Below, piece by piece: positions 1-62,450 of a stretch of 64,000 nucleotides of DNA. The position numbers were made by a program, and so were the translations under genes. The notes under the pieces are model-generated. The model saw only the letters and a program-made list of their open reading frames with translations. It made no database searches and had not been told where the DNA came from. The DNA comes from Escherichia phage BF15: sequence record MW822007.1, one strand, 5' to 3'. The first letter of the stretch is position 1. Every line of letters starts with the position of its first letter.

Positions 1-12
1 GTAAACAACTTT

Positions 13-696
13 TTATCGTTTTGTTGGAAGAGATAGAGGATCGCACTCTTCCTCTGACGGAGCATCTTCAAGACCCATAGCATATCGCAAAGCATACTTC
101 ATCATCAGGATGTCTTTCGCACAGTCATGAATAGAATCATGTGCAACGAATCCATCTAAAGTTCCTTTTGGAAGAGGACACGTGGTCATATCACGAACAA
201 GGAGAAGTGCTTCAATTCTGGTACGAATATCACGCTGATTCCAGAATTTACACGGTTCTAACTTAAATGTGTCAAGTTCATTCTCAGAAACGCCATTAAG
301 ACGTTGAATATCGCGAATGAGATCGACTAAAATTGGAAAATCAAACGACATTCCACGGCACCAGCCTTGAGATTTCCAAGGATCGATGTTATGTGCATTG
401 ATGTAATCATTAAATTTTACAATACCATCGATAGTGCTTACATCTTCATCTGACGGTGCAATATTTTTTCGAGCTTCAGGAGACTGATTTTTCCACCATT
501 CGATAGTGCTTTTAGTAAAAAGACGATGTCCTTTTTGACTTTTTAAATCAAATTTGATTTTAATGCCGCGCGAAACTAATTCATCAAACGTTTCAACTAC
601 TTCTGGATTAGGGTCAAAGGCAATAACAGCCAAATCAATAACAGCTGCCTTTTCACCGCTTCCCATTGTTTCAAAATCTATAATAAAATCAAACAT
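13..696 (-). CDS. dexA: exonuclease A (DexA), 3'-5' DNA exonuclease
   Basis: 227 aa ORF; sequence matches T4 DexA as recalled; sits left of dda as in T4. Confidence 0.85.
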   Translation of the reverse strand: MFDFIIDFETMGSGEKAAVIDLAVIAFDPNPEVVETFDELVSRGIKIKFDLKSQKGHRLFTKSTIEWWKNQSPEARKNIAPSDEDVSTIDGIVKFNDYINAHNIDPWKSQGWCRGMSFDFPILVDLIRDIQRLNGVSENELDTFKLEPCKFWNQRDIRTRIEALLLVRDMTTCPLPKGTLDGFVAHDSIHDCAKDILMMKYALRYAMGLEDAPSEEECDPLSLPTKR

Positions 697-1197: not shown

Positions 1198-2517
1198 TCA
1201 TACATAAAACACATCATAACGACCACGAGTGACACCAACATAAAGAAGCTGCTGTGCTAGTTCAGCATCTGCGTAATGAATACAAGGTGTATAGATGAAA
1301 GCACGATCTACAGACATGCCCTGCGCTTTGTGGAATGTTGATGCGGGAAGTGCTTTCACTTTACTAAACTGTGATTTAGCATCCCAAAAATCGCTCCACG
1401 GAGCCTTTCCGCCTTTATTCCAATTTTTATAAGTTTCTGCAGTTTTACCTAAAAATAAGTTAAACTTATACAGCTCTTCATCAGATGAAATTATTTTAAT
1501 CTTTTCACGATAATATTCATCATCGCCGTAAGTTTCTACTGTTAAATCCCAATGACGAATTAGATATTCTCCAGAAACACCACGAGCTTTAACAAACGTC
1601 GATGTATACTCTGCTTCTATAATACGAACTAATTGTCCGTTATTAAAAATAATTTCTGACACAGGCTTTCCATCAATTTTATATGTTTTAATTAACGGTT
1701 CCTGCATTACAATAATTTCACCGACAATAAAATCTTTATCAGTTTCAAAAATCTTTTTACGAATAATGCTATTTAACTTATCAACAGATTTATTCGTAAA
1801 TGCCATTACACGATTTTCAAACAAATCATCTAGTGATCTGACGATTGAAAAATAATTTACCATAAAATCACGTAAAGCGGTATCACCAGTAAATCCACGT
1901 ACTCCATGCCCGTCAACAATTTTATCATAAATCCACTTACCGTTACGAACATCAGTAGCTACATCAATAATAGGAGCATTACTGCGTTTAACTTCAGTGA
2001 GTTCACACTGATAAAAGTCTTTGTGCGTAAAGAATGGACTGATATAAGCAGTGTTTTCTCCTGGGTCAACAGGTCTAATTTGCTTATTATCGCCTATTCC
2101 AATTATAGTACACCACGGCGGGATAGTTGAAAGCAGAATTTTAAATAGCTTTCTATCATACATTGACACTTCGTCGCAGATTAATACTCTGCATTTAGCC
2201 AAATCCGGTACTTCTTTTTGCTCAAAAAGAACGTTTTCTTCGTATGTTACTGGGTTAATTTTAAGAATACTGTGAATAGTACTCGCTTCTTTCCCTGACA
2301 GTTTTGAAAGAATCTTTTTAGCTGCATGAGTAGGAGCTGCTAAAATAATGCCAGTTTCGCCCGTAGATATTAAGGCTTCAATAATGAACTTAGTAAGAGT
2401 AGTCTTACCAGTACCAGCAGGTCCATTAATAGTTACATGATGTTTCTTTTCTTTAATAGCCCTCATAACGATGTTAAAGGCATTTTTCTGACCTTCGGTC
2501 AAATCATCAAATGTCAT
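1198..2517 (-). CDS. dda: Dda DNA helicase (SF1B)
   Basis: 439 aa; Walker A GPAGTGKT; near-identical to T4 Dda as recalled. Confidence 0.95.
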   Translation of the reverse strand: MTFDDLTEGQKNAFNIVMRAIKEKKHHVTINGPAGTGKTTLTKFIIEALISTGETGIILAAPTHAAKKILSKLSGKEASTIHSILKINPVTYEENVLFEQKEVPDLAKCRVLICDEVSMYDRKLFKILLSTIPPWCTIIGIGDNKQIRPVDPGENTAYISPFFTHKDFYQCELTEVKRSNAPIIDVATDVRNGKWIYDKIVDGHGVRGFTGDTALRDFMVNYFSIVRSLDDLFENRVMAFTNKSVDKLNSIIRKKIFETDKDFIVGEIIVMQEPLIKTYKIDGKPVSEIIFNNGQLVRIIEAEYTSTFVKARGVSGEYLIRHWDLTVETYGDDEYYREKIKIISSDEELYKFNLFLGKTAETYKNWNKGGKAPWSDFWDAKSQFSKVKALPASTFHKAQGMSVDRAFIYTPCIHYADAELAQQLLYVGVTRGRYDVFYV

Positions 2518-2825
2518 CGTAAATTCCCTGCAATTGGTATACTAACAATACGCCCAGTATCTAAAATTCGCCGATATAATCTTTGTGTGTCTACATCAGG
2601 CTTAACGTGTTTAACTTCTATTTTATTAAACCAAAACTTACGTGGAGTCTCAACTAATCTCGGAATTCCCATACCTAAAGCTAGTTGATACTGCTCTTTA
2701 AGAGTTGTAAATACTTTATCAGCAATCTCCCTTTCAAAAAATACAGCAGGGCGATGTTCATCAAGAGGAACAGGCACCGCAAATCCATCTTTATCTCTAT
2801 ACACTATCGCATATACATAAAACAT
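2514..2825 (-). CDS. hypothetical protein (dda.1 position)
   Basis: 103 aa ORF; stop overlaps dda start. Confidence 0.5.
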   Translation of the reverse strand: MFYVYAIVYRDKDGFAVPVPLDEHRPAVFFEREIADKVFTTLKEQYQLALGMGIPRLVETPRKFWFNKIEVKHVKPDVDTQRLYRRILDTGRIVSIPIAGNLR

Positions 2826-13490: not shown

Positions 13491-13853
13491 TTAAAAGAAT
13501 TTAAACTTTTTCTTTGACCTTTTATTAAATGCATCTTGTAGTTGCATTGTAATACATTTTTCTACATGAGGAGCTAACTCAGCTTTTCTTTCTTGGTCAA
13601 GAACAGCAAAGTCCATTACGACTTTTCCATCAACCCAATCTAATTTTGTCACATACACAATGTGCGTAGAACCGTCTTCTAGTTTAATGACAATCTCCTG
13701 GATAACATTTTCCATGGCAGATTTAATTATCTTAAGAGATTCATTAAAAAGACGTTCTTTTCTTTCTTCTTCCCCCTCCGAAGAGGGGGATTCGTCGATA
13801 ATTTCTAGATCTAAATCTAAATCATCTTTATTCATTAAATTCTTCCATATCAC
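13491..13853 (-). CDS. 40: gp40 head assembly protein
   Basis: 120 aa between 41 and uvsX as in T4. Confidence 0.6.
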   Translation of the reverse strand: MIWKNLMNKDDLDLDLEIIDESPSSEGEEERKERLFNESLKIIKSAMENVIQEIVIKLEDGSTHIVYVTKLDWVDGKVVMDFAVLDQERKAELAPHVEKCITMQLQDAFNKRSKKKFKFF

Positions 13854-15009
13854 TTAACTGATCTAGGTCAGTTTCTAAATCAGCTGCTGATTTACTTTTA
13901 CTTTCTGGAGATTTAAATTTTTCAACCTTTGAGTTAATCAATTCATCAACTTCAGCTTCAACAATTTCATTACTATCAATAGCACCTAATTGATAAGCAC
14001 GTTTAATAGCATCTCGGAATGGCTGATGCTTAAATAAAGGACCCCAGAATGTAGTGCAGTTGGTATCTTTTGCACGCCAAGATTTTTCTTCGCGAATCAT
14101 CTCGCCAGTTTCTTCGTCAAGAAATTCACGAGCATACCAGCCATTTTTAGGTTTTACAACAAATCCTAATTCTAGAGCCATATCTAACAATCCAGAATAA
14201 GGATCGATACCACCGTCAAATTTAACATCAATAAAGAATTTACTTTTTTCTTTAACGGTACGAGATTTTTCTACATTTAGAACAAATTGATACCCCTGAA
14301 GATCAGAACCATCTTTAATCTGACGCTTACCGATAATGAATACTGTATCAGCCGAATACATTACGCCTGTACCACCTGTCATCACGGTTTTACTAAACAT
14401 TTCAATTGTTTCAATTGTATGGTTAACCGCAACACATGGAATATTTTTAATGCTAAAGTAAGGAGTAACAATACGGAATAATGACTTCAGTGATTTAGCA
14501 CGAGTCATATCTGCCACAGATTTTTCATTCAAGGCATCTTCCGTTTCTTTCTTAGAAGCCATATTACCGATTGAGTCGATGAATACAATAACTTTTTCAC
14601 CGCGCTCGATAGCTTCAAGCTGATTCACCATATCAATTTTCAGTTGTTCAACTGACTGGATTGGTGTATGAATTACTCGTTCCGGGTCAACTCCCATGGA
14701 TCGCAAATAAGCTGGAGTAATACCAAATTCGCTATCATAAAATAGACAAACCGCGTCAGGATATTTGTTCAAATACGCCGCAACCATAGTCAAAGACATA
14801 TTTGATTTAAAGTGTTTAGAAGGACCTGCGAAAATAGTTAAACCAGACTGCATACCGCCATCAATCGCACCAGAAATAGCAATATTAAGCATTGGGATTT
14901 TTGTACGGATTACATCCTTTTCATTAAAGAATTTAGATGTAGTCAGTTCAGCAGTCATTTTAGAAGTGGAAGCTTTAATCAAACGGGATTTTAAATCTGC
15001 AATAGACAT
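13828..15009 (-). CDS. uvsX: UvsX recombinase (RecA-like)
   Basis: 393 aa; strong match to T4 UvsX with a diverged N-terminus. Confidence 0.95.
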   Translation of the reverse strand: MSIADLKSRLIKASTSKMTAELTTSKFFNEKDVIRTKIPMLNIAISGAIDGGMQSGLTIFAGPSKHFKSNMSLTMVAAYLNKYPDAVCLFYDSEFGITPAYLRSMGVDPERVIHTPIQSVEQLKIDMVNQLEAIERGEKVIVFIDSIGNMASKKETEDALNEKSVADMTRAKSLKSLFRIVTPYFSIKNIPCVAVNHTIETIEMFSKTVMTGGTGVMYSADTVFIIGKRQIKDGSDLQGYQFVLNVEKSRTVKEKSKFFIDVKFDGGIDPYSGLLDMALELGFVVKPKNGWYAREFLDEETGEMIREEKSWRAKDTNCTTFWGPLFKHQPFRDAIKRAYQLGAIDSNEIVEAEVDELINSKVEKFKSPESKSKSAADLETDLDQLSDMEEFNE

Positions 15010-15086
15010 TCATTTTTTCCATAGGCATCATTATATTTTCCTCACTGGTTAAAGATAGAGTAATTATAACACAATAAATTTAGGCA

Positions 15087-15929
15087 TTAATTAACTGCTA
15101 TTGGATGAATAGCATTAAACTTATGAAATGCTTCTGATTTTTCTTTACGCGAAACACACATGCGAAGAACCTTTAATGGCTCGTCTTCTTCACCCAACGA
15201 TTTTCTCTTTTCAATATTCGATGTTTTCCAATGAGCTTGCTCTGGAAACTCTCTATTGATTTGCTCAAGCGCTCTATTATGTTTAGAATTACTACGAATT
15301 GAACTACACCCACCGGGAGCGTGTGATTTTCCAGATACAACTAGATATTTGAACAAGGCCAAATGCGGATAACCTTGATTAATTAAATTGAGAAATGCAT
15401 ACATATCTTCGCATAAATCAATTTTTCCATACCCAATTTGTTCTGTCGTAAGTTTTCCGAGGTCATACCATGTATTCGTGAATCCGTATGAATTTTCACG
15501 ATAATTACCCCAAGATGAAGTAATTTTAAAAATAGGTAGACGAGCATGGCCATGATAATACCCACAATCCATGGCATCTTCAACGTATTGAATTAATTCA
15601 TAGAACTGTTCACGAGTTAATTGATTAATTTTATCTACGCGCCGTTTATCGTCTCTCTTTCGTATTGAACTCATACGAATAGTAGTATCATCGTCAATCA
15701 TCCAGATTCGTTGACCTGCATACATATCAGTAATTGCTTTACGAGTACCGGCAATTCCATTAACATCATCAGGAATAGTTACAATTTTAGCTCTAGACCC
15801 ATAGGCATCATAATAAGCTTTTTCTTCATGTTCACGCACTACAATATGGGGTTCATAATCAGTCGGAAACATATCAAGGGCAGAAACTGCCCCGACACGT
15901 TGATAACTTGGAATTACAAATTGAATCAT
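15087..15929 (-). CDS. glycosyltransferase at the beta-gt locus (possibly T2/T6-type beta-alpha glucosyltransferase)
   Basis: 280 aa; DxD-like motif IDDD; unlike T4 beta-gt (351 aa) as recalled. Confidence 0.5.
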   Translation of the reverse strand: MIQFVIPSYQRVGAVSALDMFPTDYEPHIVVREHEEKAYYDAYGSRAKIVTIPDDVNGIAGTRKAITDMYAGQRIWMIDDDTTIRMSSIRKRDDKRRVDKINQLTREQFYELIQYVEDAMDCGYYHGHARLPIFKITSSWGNYRENSYGFTNTWYDLGKLTTEQIGYGKIDLCEDMYAFLNLINQGYPHLALFKYLVVSGKSHAPGGCSSIRSNSKHNRALEQINREFPEQAHWKTSNIEKRKSLGEEDEPLKVLRMCVSRKEKSEAFHKFNAIHPIAVN

Positions 15930-16567
15930 TTAAGTGCCTTACATTTGTCAAAATGGTATCTTGTCATATTTGGCCCACGTCCTTTTAGTCCGCAATGCGG
16001 ACATATTTTTTCTATCAAATTATGAGGTTTTCCTTTACGATTTTTAGACATCGTTTCTTTAATTATTTTAGCTTTTTCTGCGCCAAAAATTTCTTCATAA
16101 GTTTTACCAGAATTTTCCTTTGCTCGATTTATAATTCCATATGCCTGCTCATTTTTACCATACATTGGATTACCTTCGCCTTTCATTCTTTTAGAATGAT
16201 CAGGACGCTTGATTCCACGAAAGGCATTTCCGCACTTATATCTTTCTTCTGGAGATAGTTTTTTACCGTACATTCCATTTAATTTGCCTGGAAAACTTCC
16301 TCCCCATGCTTCATTCTTTAAATTATATGAATCCGGACAATTAGCAGCATCTAAACAAGTTAAAATAATTTCTTCAACCTGTCTAAACATTGGTCCTTCA
16401 TATAATATTTCTTTATTAAAGGATTTTATTCCATATTTCTTTTTAGCATGTTGCCAAACTACACCCGAACCATCATAATTCGGGTTGTGACCATCATGAC
16501 TTCCTATATACCACTTTTTAGTTTTAGGATGTTTATACTTATAAACATGTGGCACATTTACTTCCAT
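15926..16567 (-). CDS. GIY-YIG homing endonuclease (Seg-like)
   Basis: 213 aa; N-terminal KWYIGSHDG...YDGSG GIY-YIG motifs; basic C-terminal region with a Cys pair (CPHCG). Confidence 0.7.
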   Translation of the reverse strand: MEVNVPHVYKYKHPKTKKWYIGSHDGHNPNYDGSGVVWQHAKKKYGIKSFNKEILYEGPMFRQVEEIILTCLDAANCPDSYNLKNEAWGGSFPGKLNGMYGKKLSPEERYKCGNAFRGIKRPDHSKRMKGEGNPMYGKNEQAYGIINRAKENSGKTYEEIFGAEKAKIIKETMSKNRKGKPHNLIEKICPHCGLKGRGPNMTRYHFDKCKALK

Positions 16568-17298
16568 TTTCCAGTATAATCCTTTTTAGCAATATGAGTC
16601 TCACCGGTGTTCCACCAATGGTCAACTAAATAAAACTGATTTTCGTACACATGAAGACTTCCAACGTTCCATATAATAGAACCTGCTTTATATTGCCGCG
16701 ATGGGTCGCCTGCATTCAAATCAGATACTAATTTATCTAGTACGTATTTTTGCCAAGCATAATCATTACGATAGCCTGCCCAGCAATCATTGCTTCTCAT
16801 GCTAACAACCGCATTGACTTTCTTATCACGAATCAGGTACTGTACTGTATTCGTACACATGAAATCTGACATACCATCTTTATTGTAGTCAAACTGCATA
16901 GATGGACGAGTATAAATCATGATACCGCGCCGAGAATCAGGATTTTGACCAAGTTCAGCTAAACACATATCATACTGGGCATAGTTATCTTCTGACCAGA
17001 TGGCCCAACCATAATTTGAGTTAATTTCGCCTTTAGAAGATGCTACCTGCTGCCAAATCTTGGGTGTTTCACCTGGAATATCTTTAACAAACAGACTTTG
17101 AGACTTATACCATTCAAGTTCACGCTGAATGTATTCATCATTAAGAGCGCCAAAAATAAAAGGTTCATCTGCTACAAATGATGCACCAATAATTTCAATA
17201 GTTTTAACACCGGTTTTATCAATTACGAAATCTTTTTCCTTTAATGCAAGACCCAAATCAAGACGGATTTCTTCAACTGTCATATAATCGTTAATCAT
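16558..17298 (-). CDS. 42: dCMP hydroxymethylase gp42
   Basis: 246 aa; matches T4 gp42 as recalled. Confidence 0.95.
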   Translation of the reverse strand: MINDYMTVEEIRLDLGLALKEKDFVIDKTGVKTIEIIGASFVADEPFIFGALNDEYIQRELEWYKSQSLFVKDIPGETPKIWQQVASSKGEINSNYGWAIWSEDNYAQYDMCLAELGQNPDSRRGIMIYTRPSMQFDYNKDGMSDFMCTNTVQYLIRDKKVNAVVSMRSNDCWAGYRNDYAWQKYVLDKLVSDLNAGDPSRQYKAGSIIWNVGSLHVYENQFYLVDHWWNTGETHIAKKDYTGKWK

Positions 17299-43775: not shown

Positions 43776-44495
43776 TTAGGATTCTTCTAAATGTCTTTTC
43801 TGAAAAGTTGATACCATACTACGATACGGTTCATTTGGATATCCGTGTTTTATAGCTTCCTTTGTAAATTTTCTCCATCCACATTTAGTTTCTTTCCAAA
43901 GCTCGAATAATTCATCTTCATACTGCCATATAGTTAAATGAGAACGCTTTGCAGCTTTAATTCCATTAATATGCTTTTCTTTTACTGCAGGATTGCTTAG
44001 TTTCTTTTTAATAATATTACTAACTTTTCTAACAAAAACCGGGTCCTTATATCGTTGCGAAGTTTTTATTGAAGTGTTTAATTTAGCTTCCGGCGTGGAT
44101 GTGACCTCTTTCATCTTTTTCTTCATATGCTGTATATGATTAGGATTTTTCCATAAATTTATAGAATGCTTTTTGCATTTTATCCTAGTTTCATCTGCAA
44201 CCTTTCCTCCTTCACCCCCGTATGACAGGTTAACACAGTTTTTTCCATATTTCAATTTACCTGCCATGATATATAATATTTCAGCTTGTACCATTTTATC
44301 ATAATTATCAAAAACTTCTAAAACCGTTTTTGACAATATGTGGTCATTTGACACTTTTACACGTTCTATATAATTTCCACTACCAACATACGAATCATTG
44401 ATATTATTAGTTATATGTCGACCATAATAATATTTCTTAACGCCAGTCTTTAAATTTAATATTTCAGTTTTATAGATAGTAAAATATTTTTTCAT
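43776..44495 (-). CDS. GIY-YIG homing endonuclease (Seg-like)
   Basis: 239 aa; YYYGRH...YVGSG motifs; NUMOD-like basic repeats. Confidence 0.65.
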   Translation of the reverse strand: MKKYFTIYKTEILNLKTGVKKYYYGRHITNNINDSYVGSGNYIERVKVSNDHILSKTVLEVFDNYDKMVQAEILYIMAGKLKYGKNCVNLSYGGEGGKVADETRIKCKKHSINLWKNPNHIQHMKKKMKEVTSTPEAKLNTSIKTSQRYKDPVFVRKVSNIIKKKLSNPAVKEKHINGIKAAKRSHLTIWQYEDELFELWKETKCGWRKFTKEAIKHGYPNEPYRSMVSTFQKRHLEES

Positions 44496-45460
44496 TTTAA
44501 CAATACCGTTTCAGCGATTTCTTCCCAATAGTTTTTGTCGGTCATAATAAAGTCAGCAAGATAAAGAGCAGTACGCAGTGAAACATTACGTAAACGGTTA
44601 ACATTGACTTTCATCCATGATAATGCTTTATAAGTTTCTTCATCAGAAAGACCGCGTTTTTGCATCATGTCAGTTGAAAGAATAACATCTTCAACCCTGA
44701 CCATAATTTCTTCATTAGTGTGAACACCCAAATCTAAATAAACTGAGCGGGACACTAATGCTTGTAAATGTGGAGCAAGTTTAGTACCACGGTCTAATTC
44801 GCGGTCAATATCAACGTTTGTGATAAAAACAATCGTTCCTTTAAATTCAAACTCACGGTCAATGCCTTTTTCTTCTAAGTAAGAAGATGCAGTGCTCCAG
44901 CAGACTTTACGGGTCTCTCCAGTGTCCAGAGCAGCTTTCAGAAGATTAAGAATGTCCATATCAGAGAAAACATCCACATCATCAATCAAAAGGACAGAAT
45001 TCTCTTCACGATTATTCCAAAGCTGCTCATAAAGACCGATACCAGAGATTTTACCATTAATGCTTTTATATTCAATGTATCCAATATCATTTGCTTTATT
45101 TAAAGCTTTATCTAAAGAATACGTTTTACCAATACCCGCCGCACCAGAGATAATTAATGAACGAATATTTCCATTAATAATACCATTCGTCATCATTCCC
45201 ATAACATTAAATCTTTTATTAATGCGGGTTTTCATATCTTCATATGATTCTTTAACTTCTTCAACTTTTACACCATCATATGAAATATCTGATTTGTAAA
45301 CCCAAACACCGCGACGTTTACCGTCAATTTCAACAAAAACTTTACCATCTCCTTGTGCATCTACCGGAGCATTATCTGGGAACCATTCGCCTAAGAGCTC
45401 AAAAGTTCCAGAGATTTCTTTACCGAAGTAGATACCCTTATTGATAGTTACAGTTTTCAT
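44492..45460 (-). CDS. P-loop ATPase (AAA-like)
   Basis: track ORF trimmed to ATG 45460 (MKTVTINKG...) with GGAG SD; Walker A GAAGIGKT, Walker B LLIDDVD. Confidence 0.55.
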   Translation of the reverse strand: MKTVTINKGIYFGKEISGTFELLGEWFPDNAPVDAQGDGKVFVEIDGKRRGVWVYKSDISYDGVKVEEVKESYEDMKTRINKRFNVMGMMTNGIINGNIRSLIISGAAGIGKTYSLDKALNKANDIGYIEYKSINGKISGIGLYEQLWNNREENSVLLIDDVDVFSDMDILNLLKAALDTGETRKVCWSTASSYLEEKGIDREFEFKGTIVFITNVDIDRELDRGTKLAPHLQALVSRSVYLDLGVHTNEEIMVRVEDVILSTDMMQKRGLSDEETYKALSWMKVNVNRLRNVSLRTALYLADFIMTDKNYWEEIAETVLLK

Positions 45461-45497
45461 TTTATTCTCCAAATCCGTATCAGTAGTTGATAGTTGT

Positions 45498-45527
45498 ATA
45501 GTACCATAAAGCTTTATGCTTGTAAAC
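45498..45527 (-). promoter_or_regulatory. T4-type early promoter (ATPase gene)
   Basis: minus strand GTTTAC-N18-TACTAT; leader near-identical to copy at 18092-18155. Confidence 0.6.
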
Positions 45528-45552
45528 CGTTCTGTGAAAAAATTTTTGAAAT

Positions 45553-45576
45553 AAAAAAGGGAGCCCGAAGGCTCCC
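45553..45576 (-). terminator. intrinsic terminator after nucleotidyltransferase-like gene
   Basis: GGGAGCC-UUCG-GGCUCCC hairpin plus U run. Confidence 0.65.
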
Positions 45577-45578
45577 TA

Positions 45579-46592
45579 TCATTTATAATAACTTCGGTGG
45601 TTTTCAAGATAAACCCTCTCAAGGAAGTCATCCCAGAAACTCATGTCTACTTTTTGCTGCATACCGTTCTTAGAAGCTTTAATGGATGCTGCTTCTACTT
45701 GATCGACAACATCTTCCAAAAACTCTTGAACAGTTTTAAATGGATGTTTACCCAACTTCACGTCGAGAATAAATGGAGCGTCTTGAAGTGGATAAATCAA
45801 GTCGCCAGTTTTGTAAATTTCCAATAGTTGAAGTCCACCACGACAAGCATGACTCAGAGCTTTCCAGTCAATACCTTCGTTGGCTTCGGCCTTACGAGCG
45901 CGTTCACCGTATTCAGCATCAAGTTTATTCAAAGACTGCTTAAGCTCAATAAGAGAAAGCGTTGTCTGATATTTACGACCCAACACAGTATAGAACGTTT
46001 GCGGGCCTGTTTTCTCATGATTATGGAACACCCATTCACAGAATTCGTTTTCTGGAAGACGATGCTTAATATCTTCAACTTTAGTGCGACGCTGCTTAAT
46101 GGAACCATCTTCTTGGTAATCAACCCACTGGTCAGGGATTTGATTAACTACTTTCAATACATCACGCAATGCAGCCAAACGAGAACCCTTGACACCGTAT
46201 TTAGAAGCTTGCTTGCGGACATATCCTAAATAGGATTTCATGTTAGTCGTATAGAACCGAGAACGATTGTCTTGGATAAATTTCCATACATCAGGTAAAT
46301 CAGATTTAACCACTAGTTCAGGTGGAGTGTGAAGCATATCCAATGCTACAGTTTCACCATCTGCTGCTAATTTAAAGAAATACTTAAGACTGTATAGTTC
46401 ATGGTCAATATCATCTTTAGTGTTTTTAGATGATGTGTTGTTAGTGTTTTTACTCATATGCTCTTTAACATTTCCGATAAGAATATCGCGAGCAGGAGGA
46501 ACAAAGATTTCTTTAAAATCCACATCAGATTCTGGAGTAGAAGTTCCATAAAGATGACTACCAAAATAGCTTTTCATTACTGTTTTCATCAT
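45579..46592 (-). CDS. putative nucleotidyltransferase-fold protein
   Basis: 337 aa; N-terminal GS-x10-DVD motif typical of Pol-beta-type nucleotidyltransferases. Confidence 0.5.
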   Translation of the reverse strand: MMKTVMKSYFGSHLYGTSTPESDVDFKEIFVPPARDILIGNVKEHMSKNTNNTSSKNTKDDIDHELYSLKYFFKLAADGETVALDMLHTPPELVVKSDLPDVWKFIQDNRSRFYTTNMKSYLGYVRKQASKYGVKGSRLAALRDVLKVVNQIPDQWVDYQEDGSIKQRRTKVEDIKHRLPENEFCEWVFHNHEKTGPQTFYTVLGRKYQTTLSLIELKQSLNKLDAEYGERARKAEANEGIDWKALSHACRGGLQLLEIYKTGDLIYPLQDAPFILDVKLGKHPFKTVQEFLEDVVDQVEAASIKASKNGMQQKVDMSFWDDFLERVYLENHRSYYK

Positions 46593-61591: not shown

Positions 61592-61668
<77 letters not shown>

Positions 61669-61671
61669 TAA

Positions 61672-62337
61672 TTAAAATTTCATTTTTCGACCTTTAAACC
61701 ATCCTTCTGGAATTGGATCAGTTTTCTTAATACGTTTAGAAACTTTTTCATCTAATGAATGAATCCACATCATACCAAATTGGGAATTCTTTTCACCTTG
61801 TTGGTGTTTATTTCTGGCGTGAGATTCTTTCATTTTATTAATAGTTTCAGGAGTATGAGTCTTACCCAAGAAAGATTTAGTATTTAAAAATTTCTCTCTA
61901 TACTTAGGATTATCCCAAAGCTGTTTAAACCTTTCTGAACCCATTTTACGATATTTTTCTTTAAGGTCTGGGTCGTTCTCAAATCTGGTTTTAAAAGCGG
62001 CAGCTCCTTTTAAGGAAGCTTCTTTCTTTTTATCCAAATATTCTTTAGTGTTTAAATGGTCCCAACCACCTTCACCACCTAATTTCAAATTATAAACATC
62101 AGGGCGCTTTAAAAACTCTTCAGTCACAATATTCTTTTCTGACTCAAACATAGAGGTTTTATCGTCAAAGAACTCTAATATTTCTTTAGAAAAATTTTCT
62201 ATACCATACTTATCTTGGGCTCTTTTTAATAATTTACCAGAACCCATATATCCATCATCTAAATTTTCGGTAGAATGAGCGCCTATATAGATTTTATTAT
62301 TAATTTTATTTGTTATTTTATAAATGTAATGGAACAT
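61672..62337 (-). CDS. segB: GIY-YIG homing endonuclease SegB
   Basis: 221 aa; KIYIGAHS...YMGSG; inside tRNA cluster as T4 segB. Confidence 0.75.
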   Translation of the reverse strand: MFHYIYKITNKINNKIYIGAHSTENLDDGYMGSGKLLKRAQDKYGIENFSKEILEFFDDKTSMFESEKNIVTEEFLKRPDVYNLKLGGEGGWDHLNTKEYLDKKKEASLKGAAAFKTRFENDPDLKEKYRKMGSERFKQLWDNPKYREKFLNTKSFLGKTHTPETINKMKESHARNKHQQGEKNSQFGMMWIHSLDEKVSKRIKKTDPIPEGWFKGRKMKF

Positions 62338-62378: not shown

Positions 62379-62450
62379 TGGCCCTGGGTGGAATTGAACC
62401 ACCATCTGGCGATTATGAGTCGCTTGCTTGAACCTTCCAGCTACAGGGCC
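62379..62450 (-). tRNA. tRNA-Ile (anticodon CAU; could be Met)
   Basis: anticodon loop CUCAUAA; T-arm GGTGGTTCAATTCCACC. Confidence 0.75.

Follow-up and report, generated by a model that had tools for sequence, protein, structure and literature searches.

Free-standing homing endonucleases shape marker survival in T-even co-infection and mark the boundaries of genetic exchange. Passages of PMC2988022 describe the free-standing endonucleases of T4 as cutting hundreds to thousands of base pairs (bp) from their own genes, and state that the interval between the cut and the endonuclease gene must be co-converted; the free-standing HNH endonucleases are reported there as nicking enzymes. Among the intron-encoded GIY-YIG enzymes, I-TevI cuts near the insertion site of the td intron (literature cited in PMC3161791), and for I-BmoI a section of PMC3161791 gives Y6, Y17, E74 and N87 as the GIY/YIG tyrosines, the metal-binding Glu and the conserved Asn. 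Here we describe an open reading frame (ORF), provisionally named 'gene-42-associated Seg' and called seg below, that lies between gene 42 (deoxycytidylate hydroxymethylase) and the glucosyltransferase gene gt in a 64,000-nucleotide (nt) stretch of Escherichia phage BF15 (sequence record MW822007.1). This whole stretch is referred to as the window, and the phage is a T2/T6-like Tequatrovirus. The comparative data make it likely that seg is a free-standing, intact gene for a homing endonuclease of the Seg family, of a lineage apart from SegA to SegG and specialised for the 3' side of gene 42, that its product cuts gene 42 of phages lacking seg, and that a recoded patch in gene 42 protects the carrier. 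The gene is an uncharacterised addition to a well-known kind, and its sequence is already in the databases under generic names: public databases list the identical protein as 'hypothetical protein', as 'homing endonuclease' or, in error, as 'SegD'.

The seg protein was compared by BLASTP with SegA to SegG and I-TevI, all taken from the T4 reference genome. As the comparison proposed in the initial annotation showed, SegC was closest (36% identity over 117 amino acids (aa), E=2e-12), with SegB (36%, 2e-10) and SegD (31%, 1e-9) next, followed by SegA (32% over 167 aa, 4e-8), SegE (1e-6) and SegF (8e-4); SegG and I-TevI gave no significant match. This identity was limited to the first ~110-145 residues. 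A profile of the seg family aligned with a SegA-G profile in hhalign at 99.4% probability (E=6.6e-22, 109 columns), also over the first ~110 residues only, and the C-terminal half of the protein aligned with no T4 Seg. Like the T4 Seg proteins, the seg protein carries the N-terminal signature Y-x-Y ... YIG-x-H ... Y-x-GSG ... KKYG ... E ... YN-x-K-x-GG; like the T4 genes, seg encodes a protein of ~210-220 aa, stands free, with conserved genes on either side that it overlaps, and is present in some T-even phages but not in others, and its presumed cut would lie hundreds of bp from the gene with the interval co-converted, as in passages of PMC2988022. It differs from the T4 genes in its locus, the junction between gene 42 and gt (42/gt), and in a C-terminus that holds an invariant CCHC finger and a pair of NUMOD3-like repeats and cannot be aligned with any T4 Seg. 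In gene arrangement, SegF and SegG are reportedly the closest to seg.

The initial annotation had placed T4 segA between uvsX and the β-glucosyltransferase gene, and the T4 reference genome bore this out; the corresponding interval of the window is a 77-nt spacer. Salmonella phage Manna (PP987310; locus L179, positions 1..198) carries segA at the uvsX/gt position, with an N-terminus nearly identical to that of T4 SegA, in addition to seg at gt/42. The glucosyltransferase gene of Manna is flanked on both sides by GIY-YIG endonuclease genes. Because seg occupies another locus, shares only 32% identity with SegA and occurs beside it in Manna, it is distinct from SegA. The suspicion that seg was a distinct insertion, not an orthologous SegA at its canonical site, therefore proved well founded, with the segA site of the window empty. 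Orthology to any of SegA to SegG was rejected on the same grounds (identity of at most 36%, confined to the N-terminus; another locus; co-occurrence with segA in Manna), and seg is, as judged from these alignments, a member of the Seg family that is orthologous to no named T4 Seg. An intron-encoded endonuclease of the I-TevI type was likewise rejected, as there was no Rfam group I intron match and the flanking ORFs are uninterrupted.

The motifs that had drawn attention to the 213-aa ORF are present (K-W-Y20-I-G22-S-H-D-G and Y31-D-G-S-G), as is the basic C-terminal region with its CPHCG Cys pair (C189-P-H-C192-G; isoelectric point of the C-terminal half 9.9, with 28 K+R vs 12 D+E). The protein falls into PHROG 314, 'homing endonuclease' (E=1.8e-31), and has 69 homologues in a large protein collection, down to E=1e-143, most of them metagenomic and 45-71% identical. 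The ratio of nonsynonymous to synonymous substitution rates (dN/dS) between family members was 0.10-0.45, with dS near saturation, which indicates purifying selection; together with the PHROG match and the homologues, these values demonstrate that the ORF is no chance reading frame. In an alignment of 42 of the 69 homologues, Y20, G22, G33, C189, C192, H205 and C209 were invariant, and Y9, Y31, S34, G35, E65 and N82 were at least 90% conserved. Pfam searches with these 42 members detected SegE_GIY-YIG (PF19835) in 15, GIY-YIG (PF01541) in 7 and NUMOD3 in 30; the window protein itself scored 18.1 bits for NUMOD3 against a cut-off of 20.4 (Pfam), and 25 bits for TIGR01453 against a cut-off of 56 (NCBIfam).

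An AlphaFold2 (AF2) model of the seg protein had a mean predicted local distance difference test score (pLDDT) of 87.8, with 85-98 for residues 1-95, and its best Foldseek matches in the Protein Data Bank (PDB) were the I-TevI catalytic domain structures 1MK0 and 1LN0 (probability 1.00, template modelling (TM) score 0.63-0.68, root-mean-square deviation 2.8-3.0). The family profile also matched 1LN0 (E=0.0013), pairing Y9, Y20, E65 and N82 with Y6, Y17, E75 and N90 of I-TevI. The I-TevI segment that holds R27 and H31 in helix 1 is an insertion of ~10 residues relative to the seg family, and likewise relative to T4 SegA-G. In the C-terminal module the model places strands at residues 186-188 and 195-197 and a helix at 199-212, so that the last 27 residues carry the four Cys/His ligands; weak Foldseek matches were obtained to the RAD18 UBZ and CTCF fingers, and the modelled β-β-α unit looks like a zinc finger. 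Gene structure, fold and family membership are thus established for seg.

Beyond the GIY-YIG fold, the seg protein resembles I-TevI and I-BmoI in its modular build, where a linker that contains a NUMOD3-type element joins the nuclease to a DNA-binding module, and in its predicted target, which is the gene 42 paralogue of the thymidylate synthase (TS) motif R-S-x-D-V-x-x-G that holds the td intron. It differs from them in being encoded outside an intron, in having no aligned R27/H31 segment, in ending in a finger vs their helix-turn-helix, and in a predicted cut ~240 bp from the insertion point vs ~25 bp. The C-terminal module recurs in HNH proteins of the MobE-like kind and in a GIY-YIG protein resembling I-TevI that is encoded after gene 42 in some IMG/VR contigs; by sequence, this is the domain shuffling usual for such enzymes. 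The part shared with the MobE-like proteins comprises NUMOD3 and CPHC...NMxRYHFxxC; across it, at residues ~107-211, the seg protein is 30-38% identical to RB43 MobE and to a MobE-like protein encoded by phage Barry. The nuclease domains are unrelated (HNH vs GIY-YIG). An HNH endonuclease gene also occupies the same genomic niche, at the exact 42/gt junction, in the Jiaodavirus Klebsiella phage Metamorpho (MT701588; locus L094, 1699..2223), whose gene 42 keeps a VVF-type patch, and a 59%-identical relative of that HNH gene follows gene 42 in IMG/VR locus L137. The Metamorpho gene indicates that the junction is a landing site shared by unrelated endonuclease families.

The 2.4-kb region around seg was matched by 560 phage records, 77 of which span the full occupied allele. 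In tblastn searches the seg protein was found at 95% identity or above in 77 records, 73 of them at 99-100%, and carriers within Tequatrovirus number ~78 overall. About 400 records, including T2, T6, RB32, RB3 and RB51, matched the region in two pieces and were shorter by 632 bp, representing the empty site; these are the records of the 90-95% identity band, in which every sampled row showed this pattern. In T2, T6, RB32 and FN, gene 42 runs directly into gt through an ATGA overlap, with no intervening sequence, and the insert is a precise 632 bp. Outside the genus, a 70%-identical homologue was found between gene 42 and gt in the Klebsiella phages KPN6 and Roth04 (Jiaodavirus); in most Jiaodaviruses the 42/gt site is empty. 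In IMG/VR, every homologue at 54-65% identity sits 27-48 nt after a gene 42 homologue, including loci with another downstream gene, and homologues directly after gene 42 were present on 10 contigs; with KPN6 and Roth04 counted in, the homologues so placed are 58-70% identical to the seg protein. As these homologues follow gene 42 even where something other than a glucosyltransferase gene comes next, the association is with gene 42. These data establish a presence/absence polymorphism: seg, which has the anatomy of a mobile element, is present in a minority of T2/T6-like phages, precisely between gene 42 and gt. The initial description of seg as a free-standing GIY-YIG homing endonuclease gene agrees with this polymorphism as well as with the fold and the profile matches, the protein's role as a nuclease being the predicted part.

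Divergence between the window and the seg-less phages T2, T6, RB32 and FN was then scanned in 100-nt windows. Across most of uvsX and gt, and of gene 42 ahead of its last third, the background divergence was 2-6%, with a few local peaks of 9-18% that are common to seg-carrying (seg+) genomes. Over the last ~300 nt of gene 42, however, the window diverged by 16-23% from the seg-less phages, and the seg+ genomes were near-identical to the window there. The same comparison in Jiaodavirus, between KPN6 and the phage Mineola, gave 0-1% up to two thirds of the way into gene 42, 19-36% over its last ~320 nt, and 1-4% on the gt side. All of the seg+ Tequatrovirus alleles that were aligned (7/7) share every diagnostic state from nt 502 of gene 42 to the stop codon and differ by 0-5 nt over the 642-nt seg gene; just upstream of nt 502 they carry differing mosaics of polymorphisms that are also found in seg-less phages. 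A 303-nt query that includes this block gave a bimodal distribution, with 82 records at 95% identity or above and 416 at 80-90%, and the former number matches the count of seg+ records (77). No donor for the block was found that is nearer than the seg+ phages; its identity is 83-85% to seg-less alleles and ~77% to the next genus. The block never failed to accompany seg in the sampled records. It did occur without seg in Escherichia phage ERS-1 (PP337211, UNVERIFIED_ORG; locus L091, ~2480..2600), which carries a seg-type block including the CWAG patch and turns T2-like from ~30 nt ahead of the gene 42 stop codon; the ERS-1 record has apparent indel errors, and its allele would be either a natural recombinant or a seg-loss allele. 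A linked mosaic block is thus established in two genera, and this co-conversion signature, seen independently in Tequatrovirus and Jiaodavirus, is a population signature.

The upstream edge of the block is formed by a recoded patch at codons 168-176 of gene 42. The seg+ sequence is AGA AGC AAT GAT TGC TGG GCA GGC TAT (RSNDCWAGY), and the seg-less sequence is CGC TCA AAT GAC GTG GTC TTC GGA TTC (RSNDVVFGF); the Arg and Ser codons are fully recoded synonymously. Over alignment columns 499-540 the window is 88% identical to KPN6, which is seg+ but of another genus, vs 57% to T2, which is seg-less and of the same genus, whereas over nt 1-498 of gene 42 the window is 72% identical to KPN6 and 93% to T2. 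These data indicate that alleles cluster by seg status in the patch and by genus in the remainder of gene 42. In distant seg+ loci the patch reads DCWAG, DAWAG, DIWAG or DVWSG, and the Trp (xW(A/S)G) was present in all 12 of the distinct seg+ contigs examined; among seg-less loci, 23 patches were of the W type and 52 of the VV(F/Y) type. The association of patch state with seg (Fisher p=4.7e-6) is descriptive only, the loci not being phylogenetically independent. The patch occurs without seg in ERS-1 and in ~23 IMG/VR loci, and seg without a W-type patch in 0/12 contigs, which is the asymmetry predicted for an endonuclease paired with its immunity determinant. A second seg-specific patch, SRH to ENQ at nt ~655-663, is common to Tequatrovirus and Jiaodavirus; it was discounted as a further hallmark across genera, as Arg is retained in the distant seg+ loci (PRQ, DRQ, ERN).

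Taken together, these observations point to a homing cycle directed at gene 42. In this model seg would be co-transcribed and translationally coupled with gene 42. In a mixed infection the C-terminal region of its product, with the NUMOD3 repeats and the CCHC finger, would bind gene 42 of the seg-less phage, and the GIY-YIG domain would make a double-strand break there, our best guess for the cut being at or near codons 168-176, ~240 bp upstream of the seg insertion point. Recombinational repair from the seg+ genome would then copy seg along with the terminal 240 nt of gene 42, and the recoded patch RSNDCWAGY would render the carrier uncleavable. The divergence and linkage data fit the model of a distant cut with co-conversion that is set out in parts of PMC2988022. 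The comparative data predict that the 27-nt patch is both target and immunity determinant; if this is true, a T2 allele with AGAAGCAATGATTGCTGGGCAGGCTAT would resist cleavage, seg would add to the natural GIY-YIG enzymes one of new specificity that has a finger module at its C-terminus, and the patch would be a clean case in which recoding of the active-site motif lets the gene of an essential enzyme evade a selfish nuclease.

The patch falls in a motif of the TS family, R-S-x-D-x-x-x-G, immediately ahead of hydroxymethylase residue Asp179 (sequence-based numbering). In the T4 sequence, codon 183 of td is followed by the intron that encodes I-TevI, between QRSVDVFLG and LPFNIASY, and by alignment the gene 42 patch is the paralogous motif of this td intron/I-TevI homing site. 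It is conceivable, and we offer it tentatively, that the Seg lineage cuts the gene 42 sequence for R168-S-N-D-V-V-F-G-F as the exact TS-motif paralogue (QRSVDVFLG followed by LPFN) of the I-TevI/I-BmoI homing site. GIY-YIG endonucleases would then have settled repeatedly or ancestrally on the same TS-fold motif, and RSNDCWAGY would be an immunity allele that the protein tolerates. As seg adjoins the glucosyltransferase cassette, which in some phages has segA at its other end, cleavage may also drive T-even phages to exchange DNA-modification genes.

Several points weigh against the proposed cycle. The literature search returned no cleavage or homing data for the seg protein and no paper on it. 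By itself the window protein is below the Pfam thresholds for GIY-YIG (PF01541) and SegE_GIY-YIG (PF19835), with no match at E<=0.01, and an equivalent of I-TevI Arg27 is not alignable, as is also the case in T4 SegA-G, several of which are reported active endonucleases. A promoter scan of the region found no dedicated promoter for seg. The block could be kept together by co-adaptation within the gene 42 product (gp42) or by tight physical linkage, and the last ~35 nt of gene 42 are strongly diverged too and could hold the site instead of the patch. Furthermore, the W-type patch is common in distant seg-less phages and may simply have been native to the lineage where the gene originated, and an I-TevI-like GIY-YIG protein with a related C-terminus follows a gene 42 with a VVYG patch.

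Some of these points would favour a target elsewhere than codons 168-176, whether in the last ~35 nt of gene 42, at the 42/gt junction, in the rest of the 240-nt block or in gt, with the patch as a hitch-hiking donor polymorphism; we regard such a displaced target as possible though doubtful. The 9-10 seg-specific differences in the last 45 nt of gene 42 would suit it, as would the W-type patches of many seg-less phages and the ENQ patch likewise common to both genera; however, ENQ is not kept in distant seg+ loci whereas the Trp is, the Arg-Ser codons of the patch are fully synonymously recoded, and the seg+ backgrounds change immediately upstream of the patch. ERS-1, moreover, recombined between the patch and the 3' end of gene 42, so that the linkage is breakable, yet all seven aligned seg+ genomes keep the patch. 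Cleavage at or near codons 168-176 remains our preferred placement of the target.

It is improbable that seg is a decaying or inactive remnant, passively carried and no longer homing. Copies of the family do decay, as seen in the split ORFs of REP3 (127+86 aa) and PYps5T (110+117 aa), in a 55-aa C-terminal relic in loci L157-L159 and in a deletion in Klebsiella phage vB_KpnM_GF, but the window copy is of full length with all conserved residues present, dN/dS is well below 1, and the 99-100% identity in 73 records on diverged backgrounds indicates recent spread. Equally hard to credit is that seg is an ancestral, vertically inherited resident of the 42/gt region that has often been lost, or a gene that benefits its host through competitor exclusion or the exchange of glucosyltransferase cassettes. 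The divergence of seg between the two genera (70% identity) is like that of the flanking gp42 (71%) and gt (64%), and SegB was reported in 2026 to aid immune evasion (PMC13096335). Within each genus, however, seg comes with a foreign block of sharp boundaries, set in a gene 42 that is otherwise near-identical, the edge of that block groups alleles by seg status across genera, and the HNH endonuclease at the same junction in Metamorpho marks the site as a target of mobile elements.

Features of the window around seg (coordinates of the window)
Feature	Position	Strand	Size or extent	Basis or remark
Free-standing Seg-type GIY-YIG homing endonuclease gene, provisional 'gene-42-associated Seg'	15926..16567	-	213 aa	ORF, PHROG 314, hhalign vs SegA-G
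GIY-YIG catalytic domain, N-terminal (Y9, Y20-I-G22, Y31-x-G-S-G, E65, N82)	16283..16567	-	residues 1 to ~95	AF2, Foldseek, profile
Linker with two NUMOD3-like repeats (NGMYGKKLSPEER, GEGNPMYGK)	16148..16282	-	residues ~96-140	sub-threshold Pfam NUMOD3
CCHC zinc-finger-like β-β-α module (C189, C192, H205, C209)	15932..16012	-	residues 186-212	AF2 model, conservation
Gene 42, dCMP hydroxymethylase, predicted target gene	16558..17298	-	246 aa	Pfam Thymidylat_synt E=1.6e-14; 92% identity to T4 gp42
Putative co-conversion/linkage block, end of gene 42	16558..16797	-	last 240 nt (nt 502-741)	divergence and allele alignment
Recoded patch, gene 42 codons 168-176, predicted immunity variant of target	16771..16797	-	27 nt	upstream edge of block
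β-glucosyl-HMC-α-glucosyltransferase gene (gt; HMC, hydroxymethylcytosine), T2/T6-type, downstream neighbour	15087..15929	-	280 aa	Pfam TAGT E=1e-9; 95-96% identity to T2/T6 proteins
uvsX-gt spacer, canonical segA position, empty here	15010..15086		77 nt	no ORF
uvsX	13828..15009	-

The minus strand of the window carries, in this order, gene 43, imm.1, imm, 42.1, gene 42, seg, gt and uvsX. The ATG start of seg lies 10 nt ahead of the gene 42 stop codon, so that the 5' end of seg overlaps gene 42 by 10 nt, and its TGA stop overlaps the ATG of gt by 4 nt, as ATGA. The initial annotation had seg overlapping two essential genes; both overlaps are real and the description is right for gene 42, which is essential in T-even phages, but loose for gt, as the β-α-glucosyltransferase is generally not counted as essential. 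With ~78 sequenced Tequatroviruses as carriers and relatives in Jiaodavirus and metagenomic phages, seg is widespread, and it adjoins the genes of hydroxymethylcytosine synthesis and glucosylation, which are decisive in the face of restriction and further defences. A full-text literature search of incomplete coverage turned up no account of an endonuclease located at 42/gt, though an earlier description is possible.

Around seg no dedicated promoter or terminator stood out above shuffled expectation, no T4 late-promoter TATAAATA was found near the gene, and Rfam families gave no match at E<=1 between positions 14900 and 17800, including no group I intron. As no dedicated promoter was found, read-through from gene 42 was assumed, and seg is presumably expressed by this read-through and by translational coupling to gene 42. 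A terminator-like hairpin on the coding strand (15877..15893, -) lies inside the 5' end of gt (GGGGCAGTTTCTGCCCT), with the same sequence in seg-less alleles, and another on the opposite strand (15988..16002, +) lies within the finger-coding part of seg. The count of such hairpins was 3 vs 1.4 +/- 1.1 in shuffled sequence, an excess that is not clear.

Traces of loss were seen at related loci. In L157-L159 (L157, ~2230..2400), a relic of ~55 aa from the seg C-terminus, comprising helix and finger, stands just after the stop of a W-type gene 42. Klebsiella phage vB_KpnM_GF (L095) is without the stretch equivalent to KPN6 L010 2901..3529, which comprises the final ~100 nt of gene 42 and most of seg; as the record is a 'partial genome', this gap would be either a real deletion or an assembly artefact. 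The split ORFs, the relic, the GF deletion, the patch-only allele of ERS-1 and the Metamorpho HNH gene fit a cycle of invasion, decay and loss at a contested site.

Further endonuclease genes were observed in these loci and in the window. Loci L029-L032 (e.g., L030, 2641..3315) encode an I-TevI-like GIY-YIG ORF with an R-R-F-K-T-H helix-1 motif that is absent from the Seg family. Its C-terminal NUMOD3 and CPHCG...NMTRYHFDNC finger are 33% identical to the C-terminal half of the seg protein, and it lies 47 nt after a gene 42 homologue whose patch reads VVYG. At a distance of 3 kb (L030, 5513..6157), a further endonuclease with a comparable finger is encoded. In the window, a 221-aa segB orthologue (61672..62337, -; 83% identity to T4 SegB over 203 aa; PHROG 314, E=5.6e-49) lies between tRNA-Arg (61592..61668) and tRNA-Met (62379..62450), its canonical position in the 8-gene tRNA cluster. 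A third Seg-like ORF of 239 aa (43776..44495, -; PHROG 314, E=3.8e-30) overlaps by 4 nt the end of a 379-aa ORF (44492..45631); with only 22-34% identity to T4 SegA-F, it looks like another free-standing GIY-YIG gene that is not of T4 type.

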